Shown here piece by piece: positions 55,524 through 59,738 of a DNA stretch of 64,000 bases. The stretch covers positions 3,286,001 through 3,350,000 of the forward strand of contig NW_026889767.1 in NCBI RefSeq assembly GCF_033153115.1. Direction: 5' to 3'. A model generated the notes under the pieces. The model did not search any database and was not told the origin of the DNA. It saw only the letters and a list, made by a program, of their open reading frames with translations. Positions within the stretch are counted from its first letter, which is position 1, and the number at the start of each line of letters is the position of its first letter. Both the position numbers and the translations under genes were made by a program. This DNA is from Saccostrea echinata. Its lineage: Eukaryota.

Positions 55524-57446
55524 GAAACGAAACGGAACGAAACCAGTTGTGGGGGTACCTTCTGGGGGAAATAAAAATGAATGTAAAACTAAAAAAAGAA
55601 AAATAAATAATATTATTTAATTAACATACATTACGCCACAGTGTGAAGTAGCGAGCTGTAAAATAAAATGCCTGTAACCTAGTTTATGCATTAATTTTTG
55701 CTAACATCTGTAGTTACTATATAAACAGTATTGAATGATTGATATTCATCTATTAACGATGCATTCCTATCCAAATTTAACGTCAAGGACTTCGGTACAT
55801 CGTTTATTTTGTTACTTACACGCCTGTATAGTATAGAGAGTTGTCGCATTTTGCCAGCATGACAAGATTCTCTGGTTCCGTTCAGCTCCGCTAAATACCA
55901 ATAACTGTGTGGATATTAGTATTTAGCGGAACGGAACGAAACACAGCAAAATTAAATACTTGTAATGTTACTCATACAAGCACTCTGTTATTATTCAATT
56001 AAATTATAAAAAAGAAAACCCTGTATATTAAATTTTGAAAAGCAGTATGAAAAAGACAAGGAGAATTAGAATCAATATGCTTGATTTTTAATTAGATTTT
56101 TGACTTCTCAGAAAGACTAAAATCGCAGATGTATGCACATCATTATCACTTTAAAATCTGTTATATATATTTATATATTGCGGACCTTGATGCTGATAAT
56201 AAAACTCAAATACCATTTCTCAATCAATTAAAACATTTATAGACTAGTTTCAATTGTATTGTGTAACGTTATATGTGTAATGTGTTATGGGCCGACAGAA
56301 ATGTTGGCTAATTCAACATTTATTGATATATTTAAAGGTTCACATTCACACTCTTTATATTTTCAAAAGAAGAAAACATAAAGAAGTCCACAACTGGTTT
56401 TGTTGCGTTCCGTGAAATACCAATTTCCACTACAATATTGGTACTTTGCGAAACGGAAAGGAACCACATTGTTAAGGGTTTAAAACTGTGTCGATAAACG
56501 GCGAGAGATATACTTTTGTGTCCTATATGCAAGAGTTTTATTTTAAAATCATATCTGCAGGAAAATAAATTTCTTCAGTAACTTGCATATATAAAGAGAA
56601 TATATTTTTTTTTTTTAAATCCAATAAATGATTAATAATTAATTTATTTTACTCAAACATTTAGTTTTAAAGTAATATTATTTACGAAAAAAGAAAATAA
56701 AATTAACGATAGCCATATCTTGTTCCGTTCCGTTTCACAAACTACAAATACCCACACGGGTATTGGTATTTTGCGAAACGAAACGAAACCATAGGTTTCC
56801 TTTTGAAGAGAAAGATAAAATACCAAGAAATAACAACGGCAAACTTACAAATTCTGTCAATGTGTGGTTTAAGATTGTTAAATTGTGAAAAAAGTGAAAA
56901 ATATTGATATAAGTGATGTTAAAAACGCATATTCCGTTTCCTCAACTGTTACGTAACACATTTTTTATGCCATATATTTTGGTATTATGTAAATGTTATT
57001 ATGTGCATAATATATTGGATGAATGAAGTAGTGTTACAACAACCTTTAGGACAGTAAAATAAAATGCTTAAAAGTTCTAGCTTTTATACATTATTTTGTC
57101 TTGTGGGTTTTTCATCTGGTGTGACATCTGTTGTTATAATGGGAGATGTATTGAATGATTGGTATGTATTAATTATTATTGTAAAGTGAATTTATTCAAA
57201 TGCTCGAGTACGGTGCTAAAGAAATATCGTTTATTTTATTTCAGTCAAGAGAGTTGGTTTTTGCCAACATTCGCCATCCTTTGGTTCCATTCCGTTCCGC
57301 TAAATACCAATATCCGTGTGGATATTAGTATTTAGCAAAACGGAATGGAACTAAGTTACCTATGAATCATATAAATGTATGAGTATTGTATGAGTTTCAG
57401 TCTGTTATTCTTTATCGGTAAATCTTGCTATAATTATTTTTAGATG

Positions 57447-57531
<85 letters not shown>

Positions 57532-59738
57532 CAAAACTTTAATCTGAGAAAAAGCTCTTGCATTCAAATAATTAAAAGTGACATCGTTAATGTGCAAAAG
57601 TATGCCAAATGTCAACATTGTAAGTACTCAATATTTTTGTTGCGTTTTATTGTTTTTAGTCATATACACATGAATAAAATTTCTTGGTAAAAGCTTTGCA
57701 AGCCTTTTTAACAAAATATCTATAATCTGAAATTCTCTATCAGCCATATCTTCATGACCTGGTCATACATACTCGTAATTCAAGAAAACCACGATTTTTA
57801 ATAATACATCTGTCAAATACCCTCAAGGCTCAAGATATCAACATATCTTGACCATAAAATTCCCTTCTAAATGCCGTTTTGATATTCAGCAAAATAATTC
57901 ACTTTCAAGGGACAAATAGTTTCTAATGATGAGTGTACTTGTATGTCAAGAAATGCATGAATATCATGTTATGTAATAAAATCGTTGGATATTTGGAGGG
58001 AACGGGACATGTCCCACACATGTCCCACACAAAGTCTCTCATCTCTAAATCGGTATTTTTATAGATATCAGCTAAGCTGTCATGAATCATGGGCGATTCA
58101 ATCGTGCGATTAAAAAAAAATATTTAAAAAAAATATATATGAGAGAGATAGAGAGAGAGAGAGAGCAAAAGATATACCAGTTTGCCTCTATGGAGAAATT
58201 TAAAAAGAGAATGAGAATTTTCAATATGCATATTTAAAATGCATTGCTTTCAAAATTACTCATCAAAATCTTGGATACAGTTCTAAAAATATATCGCTTG
58301 TTTTGTTATCCAACAAGTCTGTATAGTAAAATGAGTTGTCGCATTTTGCCAGCATAAACATTATACATGTATATCTGGTTCCGTTCCGCAAAATACGAAT
58401 ATCCGTGTGGATATACCTATTTAGCGGAACGGAACGAAACAGCGAAGTTGAAATCCAATGATGTATATGCAAGTACTCTGTTGTTAGACAATTAATCTAA
58501 TTCTTTTTAATCATGAAAGGTAGAATTCCGTCTATTTAATTTAGATAATCAATACTAAAGAGACAAGAGAATTTTGTTCCCGGATTTTCCTCCAGATTGT
58601 CGGAAAGGAAATTTGCAGTTATCTCTTTTAGAGTGTGTACATGCAGGAAGGGTGAAAATATCTTGATATCTTGAGGGGATCCGCCAGGGTTTCATTAAAA
58701 ATTGATTTTTTTTAATTATGTACGACGACGTCATGAAATTATGGCTGATAGAGGATTTAAGATTAGAGATTTGTTGTTATAAAGGCATTCAAAGCTTGTA
58801 ATTCTACCTTTTACCAAGAAATTTTATTCAAGTGTCTTTGAATACAAATCATTTCAAACAAACAAAAACACATCTATGCATACAATGTTGACATTTGGAA
58901 TACTTCTGCACATTATTAACGATGTCACTTTTATTTATTTGAATGCAAGCGCTTTTTCTCAGATTACCATGTAATATTAATTCATCTAAAAATAATATAA
59001 TAAGATTTACCGATAAAGAATAACAGACTGAAACTCATTCAATACTCATACATTGATATGATTCCTGGGTAACTTGGTTCCGTTCCGTTTCGCTAAATAC
59101 TAATATCCACACGGATATTGGTATTTAGCGGAACGAAACGGAACCAAATAATGGCCAATGTTGGCAAAGGGAGATAACTCTCTTTACTTTGGACGTGTTT
59201 ATAAACAAATAAACGATATTTCTTTAGCACTGTACCCAAGCATTTGGATAAATTCATTTTACATCAATAATTGATACATATCAATCATTTAACACAGTTT
59301 ACATAGCAACAACAGATGTCACACCAGATGAAAAACCCACACGGCAAAATAATGTATAAGCTAGAATTTTAAGCATTTTATTTTACTGTCCTAAAGGTTG
59401 TTGTAACGCTACTTCATTCATCCAATATATTACGCACATAATAACATTTACATAAATACCAAAATATGGTACATAAAAATGTCGAGCAGTTGAGGAAAAG
59501 ATATTTGCGTTTTTATTTTTAACATCATCTAAATCCATATTTATCACACTTTTTTCACAATCAAACAATATTCAAACCACACATTGACAGAATCTGTAAG
59601 TCTGCTGTCGTTTTTTTTTTTTTTTTTTTTTTTTTGATTTTATGTTTTCTCTTCAAAAGGAAACCTATGGTTTCGTTTCGTTCCGCAAAATACCAATACC
59701 CGTGTGGGTATTGGTAATTTGCGGAACGGAACGGAACA
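55524..59738. repeat. Array of ~70-bp palindromes (7 complete plus 1 half)
   Basis: Consensus GGTTCCGTTCCGTTCCGCTAAATACCAATATCC-GTGT-GGATATTGGTATTTAGCGGAACGGAACGGAACC. Copies at 55874-55942, 56396-56465, 56721-56790, 57283-57352, 58377-58440, 59076-59145 and 59669-59738; half-site at 55524-55544. Confidence 0.92.

Follow-up and report, generated by a model that had tools for sequence, protein, structure and literature searches.

A scrambled array of directional palindromes in Saccostrea echinata and its candidate reading as joined transposon ends

In a 64,000-nucleotide stretch of Saccostrea echinata DNA (NCBI RefSeq assembly GCF_033153115.1, contig NW_026889767.1, positions 3,286,001 to 3,350,000 of the forward strand; hereafter the window, numbered from its first letter), palindromes of about 70 bp, each with a directional core, form an array between positions 55,524 and 59,738. 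We give an even chance to the reading that each palindrome is the junction of two terminal inverted repeats (TIRs) of ~33 bp, left by short, gene-less DNA transposons that lay in tandem and were later scrambled by ordinary duplication. If the palindromes are such joints, the elements are most likely of the IS3EU/GingerRoot type. The sequence of the palindrome is already catalogued, as part of the monomer of a Pacific-oyster satellite, and it recurs in tandem units in two metagenome contigs; the array itself was reshaped by one inverted duplication whose ends lie away from the cores.

The window is AT-rich and animal-type in base composition (GC 27–39%, the lowest bins including N runs) and carries many repeats. 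The seven complete palindromes and one half copy that an initial annotation had reported proved to be real. For each of the seven (H1 to H7; Table 1), all 200 shuffles fold less well than the native sequence (z −3.9 to −14.8), and the half copy, H0, was recovered only as a weak outer-arm match at 55528–55550 (nhmmer with an arm profile, E 0.0068). The loops start at 55907, 56429, 56754, 57316, 58405, 59109 and 59702, with start-to-start spacings of 522, 325, 562, 1089, 704 and 593 bp. The reported order of polarities, +,−,−,+,+,−,+, holds along the array, and the reported GTGT/ACAC core is exact in six of the seven copies, that of H2 (56429) being degenerate and 5 nt long. H0, H1 and H2 are copies in decay. 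As the annotation had stated, the array contains no recognizable open reading frame: no stop-free frame reaches 100 aa or more within it, the shorter frames have no Pfam match, and no Rfam family attains its gathering score.

Read outward from the centre of the palindrome, which is CCG-TG-TGG, each arm consists of GGRTATTRGTATTTWGC followed by two or three GRAAC units. Two arm types occur, A with GGAT (H1, H4, H5 and H6) and B with GGGT (H3 and H7). Positions 1–17 are gap-free among 19 aligned arms, save for a one-base offset in H2, and majority counts of 7–15 out of 15 at positions 1–32 drop to 4–9 out of 15 beyond. The loop and the inner 17 bp hold a fixed register, and changes in arm length fall mostly within the outer GGAAC run, with the weak half-site on contig L001 (see below) as an exception. 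The outer 5′ end of the hairpins often reads TNYGG. Over all choices of ends tried, four of the seven hairpins have no direct repeat of at least 4 nt around them, and no consistent target duplication was seen to flank the hairpins of the window. A 5-nt direct repeat (TRTGG), drawn from the 256 offset pairs tried per copy, lies at equal offsets around H2 and H3/H7 and is missing at H1, H4, H5 and H6.

Positions 56536–57838 and 58658–59909 form a single inverted duplication with arms of ~1.3 kb (blocks of 83% and 75%), which lies behind four of the seven palindromes and was overlooked in the initial annotation. Because both pairs lie within this duplication, H3/H7 and H4/H6 are twins, and the array therefore holds five independent complete copies. 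None of the four duplication ends falls at a core; they lie 100–500 bp from the nearest one, and lenient scoring, which extends the duplication weakly to 56465/60008, also stops outside a core. In addition, homology continues across both sides of the hairpins in H3/H7, H4/H6 and H1/H5. The visible rearrangement was therefore not cut at the cores. The annotation had suggested loxP/attC-like sites that drive inversion, a proposal that survives in spirit as a reading at the level of DNA, but these ends lie off the cores and no recombinase frame was found in the window. Its other suggestion, a large foldback element, is right in that a large inverted repeat exists, but the palindrome is found outside it as well, in head-to-tail units with other flanks. 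The array is likely a remnant, old and scrambled, that shows nothing to suggest activity today.

The same palindrome occurs in a known satellite. Four of the six arm motifs searched in the supplement to the satellitome of the Pacific oyster, C. gigas, were matched, all of them in the monomer of CgiSat35 (PMC8268682). According to the parts of that source available, CgiSat35 has a 690-bp tandem monomer, makes up 0.02% of the genome and shows Repbase similarity to DNA/IS3EU; by our reading of a table row, 6 and 4 monomers are annotated on the chromosomes of two assemblies. In a comparison by eye over the first 400 of the 690 monomer letters, CgiSat35 has the same arms and the same ACAC/GTGT core as the window in a tandem unit of similar size, and ~15 nt past its arm resemble L001 and L002. 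Its arms carry two pentamers, whereas those of the window carry three. The window array also differs in being scrambled and of mixed orientation, with two arm types and units of 325–1089 bp. The initial annotation had held that a catalogued transposable-element motif would speak against it, and in part this is the case, as the satellite monomer that contains the motif matches a transposon in Repbase. No mention of a palindrome in the CgiSat35 monomer was found in the available parts of PMC8268682. The literature searched, with subscription journals and Repbase Reports outside its coverage, yielded no description of this palindrome or of joined IS3EU ends, and the six arm strings had no match in literature text, supplements being outside that search.

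Two AT-rich metagenome contigs, L001 and L002, also bear the palindrome; they were found with a scan pattern that required the core, single arms being outside its reach. On both contigs it sits at the joint of head-to-tail units that can be aligned over ~500 bp (the L001 unit is ~650 bp), and its arms pair at 22–24 of 33 positions. When flanks from the window were compared with flanks from L001 and L002, 27 of 28 comparisons were shuffle-like (at least 9 of 200 shuffles scored as high) and one stood at 2 of 200; remote homology between these flanks was rejected as not above shuffles. L001 further contains two half-sites, both interrupted where the core would be. The stronger lies at 1185–1221 (E 6e-10); the other, at 218–242, is weak (E 0.026) and starts directly after an unrelated tandem repeat. 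No 6-bp repeat accompanies the half-sites; with the ends chosen in one particular way there is a repeat of 4 nt, and the host repeat does not pick up again. Comparison of the weak half-site with either end type was not significant in any of five comparisons. Eleven bases past the strong half-site, at 1225–1245, lies a second core of opposite polarity, accompanied by six bases of arm; this may be a fold-back or a core that was flipped. For H2 and the second copy on L001, a flip of the core relative to its flanks was weighed as well, and both can also be explained without one.

Matches from other sources were set aside as chance. They comprise 38 loci on viral contigs, all pairing at only 6–14 of 33 arm positions, 22 core matches in prokaryote genomes (one locus appearing twice), pairing at 9–16 of 33, and a prokaryote single-arm match that ends where the search pattern ends.

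The stems were then compared for paired changes and for conservation. Pairing holds in 87% of cells across the seven copies. Both sides have changed in 7 of the 33 pairs, a number that 1 of 500 shuffles attains. This count is inflated because the copies are related (the twin pairs), and by our own count about three events are independent: the GGAT/GGGT split, a switch between T and A at arm position 15, which fails to pair in H5, and a change private to H4. Several further paired changes trace to a 5-nt deletion in H5, the copy at 58377, in which the GCTAAA/GCAAAA pairing is broken; at the ATATCC/ATACCC position, the CgiSat35 consensus carries a mismatch (by eye). The paired stem differences that the annotation had described are real but few, and one of its examples fails in H5. 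Paired changes can also come from arm-to-arm template switching, without selection.

The claim that hairpins were kept better than their flanks holds among the older copies and strongly between families, and is modest in the twins. In these recent twins, the hairpins have 10 substitutions in 144 positions and no gap, versus 130 in 1,030 for the rest (p 0.028); against the nearest flanks alone (24 in 259), p is 0.27. For the five non-twin pairs among H1, H4, H5 and H6, the hairpins have diverged less than their flanks (p 0.001–0.011, uncorrected). Between arm types and against L001/L002, hairpin identity is 69–87% and flanks are at shuffle level. Within the L001/L002 family, the comparison of hairpin with flank gave p 0.16.

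The joined-end reading would account for the fixed inner register, the length changes in the outer run, the arms shared by unrelated bodies, the tandem units and the half-sites that break at the core. The sharing of ends without bodies across families may be of the kind that non-autonomous families display. The mobile unit would be the 300–700 bases between palindromes, and the directional core would be the joint of a left end with a right end. A transposase supplied from elsewhere may bind the inner 17 bp and the GGAAC run. Stereotyped end joining, either through circle formation or through insertion beside an existing end, would leave the same core in every family; tandem units could then grow or shuffle through ordinary duplication, and the few paired changes would come from arm-to-arm copying.

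The centre can be interpreted in three ways. It may be one transition away from two IS3EU ends (TAYGG) that overlap at TA; read inward from the shared dinucleotide, CGG stands on one side and TGG on the other, which are both states of Y in TAYGG. An equally good alternative would be a full TG end fused to its partner at a point two bases in from that partner's terminus, and a plainer one would be GG..CC ends around a 4-bp, target-like core. Under all three, the palindrome is a joint between two element ends.

Several observations weigh against joined ends. Every copy seen has TG instead of TA as its central dinucleotide, and neither the window nor L001 and L002 yielded a free end that pairs a canonical terminus with a 6-bp duplication. 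Within the window, the arm type agrees within palindromes and not across the two ends of a unit: units 56758–57315 and 59113–59701 have one end of each arm type, with both ends of the same polarity, and thus require chimeric units or arm-to-arm copying. H0 breaks 16 nt inside the arm and not at the core. The cores of L002 and of the L001a copy lend no independent support because the search pattern required the core. No IS3EU-type transposase was found among 242 of the 246 stop-free frames of at least 55 aa in the window, a scan that left out the four shortest of the left part. Finally, the segment of CgiSat35 behind the IS3EU match is unnamed in the available parts of the satellitome paper, which calls its non-Helitron Repbase similarities fragmentary (PMC8268682).

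The agreement of arm types within palindromes would be expected if the palindrome were instead a complete cis-acting site maintained through selection for mobility: a Crypton-like or loxP-like recombinase target with a directional core, or a hairpin internal to some mobile element, rolling-circle or other. Also in favour of such a site are the two inverted arms and the asymmetric core between them, exact in six of the seven window copies and in CgiSat35; we nevertheless consider it rather unlikely. In Cryptons, terminal direct repeats of 4–6 bp are thought to be substrates of recombination, as far as the available part of PMC3212892 goes. The TRTGG repeat at equal offsets around H2 and H3/H7 would also fit such a site, against which stand its absence from four copies and its selection among 256 offset pairs per copy. 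The Crypton-matched oyster satellite CgiSat40 has a long hairpin of its own, ~120 nt and closed by a GCGAAGC loop, in a 673-bp monomer (PMC8268682, available parts); like CgiSat35, it places a long palindrome inside an oyster satellite unit, but its hairpin differs in sequence and loop (by eye). The duplication ends that avoid the cores and the homology that runs through the hairpins argue against a recombination site, although this negative holds for the window only, since both L001 half-sites are interrupted at the core. Pfam gave no match to a tyrosine recombinase or an HUH enzyme in the 242 of 246 window frames scanned; the geometry, 33-bp arms and 4 asymmetric nt (in an 8-bp centre), compares with arms of 11–13 bp and spacers of 6–8 bp at tyrosine-recombinase sites. 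A palindrome with no present role in mobility, whether the descendant of one old structure, evened out by template switching between its arms and spread passively with duplications, or a DNA site that the host keeps for protein binding, is unlikely. The decay of H0, H1 and H2, the paired change that arose in H4 alone and the failure of hairpins to be better kept than the nearest flanks in the twins, and likewise than flanks in the L001/L002 family, would all be in keeping with it. Arm-to-arm copying, however, should not keep lineages near one consensus, yet hairpin identity remains at 69–87% between families whose flanks are no more alike than shuffles, and the satellite that contains the motif has a transposon match.

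Tiny palindromic miniature inverted-repeat transposable elements (MITEs) resemble the 70-bp palindromes in size and shape. The hairpin might accordingly be a micro-MITE whose several insertions were followed by duplication together with the surrounding sequence, an idea favoured by the presence of at least three unrelated flank families and by the frequent TNYGG at the outer 5′ end. We regard it as very improbable: four of the seven hairpins lack a direct repeat of at least 4 nt, the outer ends are the least conserved part, and in all three sources the copies are clustered in tandem and not solitary. Slightly less probable still is a cluster of microRNA-like hairpin RNAs, which the initial annotation had put forward as pre-miRNAs. 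A basal UG and an apical UGUG are motifs of Microprocessor substrates, and the GTGT strand would carry both on a strongly folding 33-bp stem; the array, moreover, could be part of an intron, as a broken GMC oxidoreductase gene has its first recognizable exon 2.2 kb downstream. Animal pre-miRNAs have an open apical loop of ~10 nt or more that is less conserved than the mature arm. Here, by contrast, the loop is just 4 nt and is the invariant part. There is no strand preference, with 11 G-U versus 8 A-C mismatches (p 0.65) and the GTGT strand folding better in five of nine copies and the ACAC strand in four; copies point both ways, and stem length shifts by pentamers. Generic Rfam miRNA models match far below their gathering scores (best 35 versus 95 bits), and a C. 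gigas miRNA catalogue contained no match in nine supplementary files, one of them covered in part, in which a control miRNA was found (PMC4138081). A survey, in its available part, reports no dedicated siRNA pathway in molluscs (PMC12479628).

A bolder extension of the joined-end reading, which we hold as doubtful, is that animal IS3EU elements move by copy-out-paste-in, as bacterial IS3 and IS30 do, and that a stereotyped reactive junction places new copies beside existing ends, building satellites such as CgiSat35 as well as arrays of mixed orientation. If so, the palindromes would be genomic fossils of the joined-end intermediate. The structure and working of IS3EU have been called largely unexplored (PMC11934779, available part). 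Joined ends would provide a countable sequence signature of IS3EU transposition and would tie a catalogued oyster satellite to a mechanism; a recombinase site or an internal hairpin would mean that the motif flags an uncatalogued element. Under either reading, the motif allows a cheap genome-wide test. This one decayed array has no demonstrated effect on its host.

Table 1. Features of the palindrome array, in positions of the window.
Positions	Strand	Feature	Remarks
55524..55550	+	H0, half copy: outer part of a single arm (GRAAC run), lacking the core and the inner 16 nt	nhmmer; outermost 13 nt as in H2
55704..55870	+	Flank common to the copies at 57283, 58377 and 59076	73–74% blocks; 77–85% in local alignments
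55874..55943	+	H1 palindrome, A type (GGAT arms)	Core GTGT 55907–55910
56395..56466	-	H2 palindrome, degenerate	5-nt core 56429–56433
56536..57838	+	Left arm of inverted duplication	Holds H3, H4 and the TA run
56721..56790	-	H3 palindrome, B type (GGGT arms)	Core ACAC 56754–56757; twin of H7
57283..57352	+	H4 palindrome, A type	Core 57316–57319; twin of H6; one private two-sided change
57450..57528	.	(TA)39.5 microsatellite	Left arm only
58103..58224	+	Unrelated repeat piece in the spacer of the duplication	96% identical to 50734–50857
58377..58441	+	H5 palindrome, A type	Core 58405–58408; 5′ arm one pentamer short
58658..59909	-	Right arm of inverted duplication	Holds H6 and H7
59076..59145	-	H6 palindrome, A type	Core ACAC 59109–59112
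59669..59738	+	H7 palindrome, B type	Core 59702–59705

The rest of the window contains genes and further repeats. Exons of two GMC oxidoreductase paralogues lie on the minus strand at 6175–11521 and 48599–53345. The second looks like a pseudogene because of in-frame stops in the exon near 53180–53345. The search did not locate its first exons, and the array may therefore be either intronic or upstream of the gene. Just left of the array, a direct repeat of ~110 bp (53599–53707 and 54282–54394; 75%) carries recurring AACCGATTA-like words, with an inverted copy of the motif near 54950–55000; the repeats at 53599–54394 are probably another non-autonomous element. To its right, 62266–63800 holds a decayed two-gene element that runs off the window, with a YqaJ-type alkaline-exonuclease frame on the plus strand (Pfam Viral_alk_exo, E 5e-7) and, pointing towards it on the minus strand, a broken DDE_Tnp_4 transposase (E 3e-7). 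Such a pairing suggests ISL2EU. Linkage of the array to this nuclease/transposase remnant at 62.3–63.8 kb was rejected, as no arm match lies near it. Inverted-repeat, MITE-like elements unrelated to the array arms occur at 10562–11288, 13568–13852, 14395–14540, 46741–47112 and 52186–52337; those at 13568 and 46741 are related to each other, and those at 14395 and 52186 are near-complete palindromes of ~150 bp. A direct duplication of ~3.5 kb (17194–22691 and 27499–30952; 78–88% identity) has no Pfam match. A tRNA-like sequence at 42588–42660 on the minus strand, at the Rfam gathering score (34 bits), adjoins repeats that recur at 15261–15593 and is possibly the head of a short interspersed nuclear element.

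Several known systems were compared with the array, and some could be discarded. Origin-type palindromes of herpesviruses and baculoviruses were dropped, there being no viral gene context. The 11–12-bp subterminal inverted repeats, short 3′ palindrome, 4-nt microsatellite and central tandem repeats of the Helentron HINE elements (Cg_HINE), as given in the available part of PMC7492417, were not seen around the hairpins in an inspection by eye. Replitrons have an 11-bp palindrome, and molluscs are not mentioned in the part of their description available (PMC10288648); likewise, the available text on Crypton-derived Eulor repeats yielded no hairpin wording (PMC5753468). For bivalve KolobokP, a circle with abutted TIRs has been proposed, and its LTDR multimers are bivalve DNA transposons with RR..YY ends, 3–5-bp duplications and 450–660-bp units, according to the accessible text of PMC9587614. 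The KolobokP TIRs are 11–18 bp, versus ~33 bp for the array arms, and identity with KolobokP was rejected, since no arm motif was found as a terminus in four supplementary files (six unrelated matches; PMC9587614). In Drosophila, tandem copies of the TIR transposons P, hobo and Bari1 have a palindrome at each joint and can seed satellites, one joint being amplifiable into an array with or without a target duplication (10.1101/158386, available part). Their spacer is a locus-specific target duplication, whereas here one core comes back at several loci and in several flank families.

IS3EU elements have TA..TA ends and 6-bp duplications (PMC10045372), fungal IS3EU families have TIRs of >30 bp and ends of the form TAYGG..CCRTA (PMC12730594), and GingerRoot, of the IS3EU lineage, has been reported from C. 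gigas and has TG..CA ends in 5 of 77 intact clubmoss copies (PMC6839031), each by the part of the source available. An IS3EU-like derivative forms large arrays in Hydractinia (PMC11934779, available part). Joined ends were not found described in the accessible parts of PMC10045372, PMC12730594 and PMC6839031, and the fungal consensus ends, as far as given there, have only their first five letters in common with the array arms. The array is like IS3EU/GingerRoot in that TIRs of >30 bp correspond to arms conserved over positions 1–32, provided that the arms are TIRs. Its centre has the YGG of TAYGG on both sides, with TG standing where a shared TA would be or, alternatively, belonging to one TG end whose partner is 2 nt short; no 6-bp duplication, free end or transposase was seen. 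In bacteria, joints between two inverted repeats (IR–IR joints) usually hold a few extra spacer bases. Such bases are stated for IS3/IS256 in the available part of PMC9587614. The IS3EU reading here needs instead a 2-bp overlap or loss, and any activity of the joints proposed here is hypothetical. The bacterial joints arise in tandem dimers (PMC9333248, PMC3299598), and IS30 that targets its own ends forms only left–right IR–IR junctions (PMC9333248). As described in the accessible parts of these two sources, the IR–IR junctions of the IS30 and IS3 families share with the array a fixed left–right polarity, a palindrome and an asymmetric centre.

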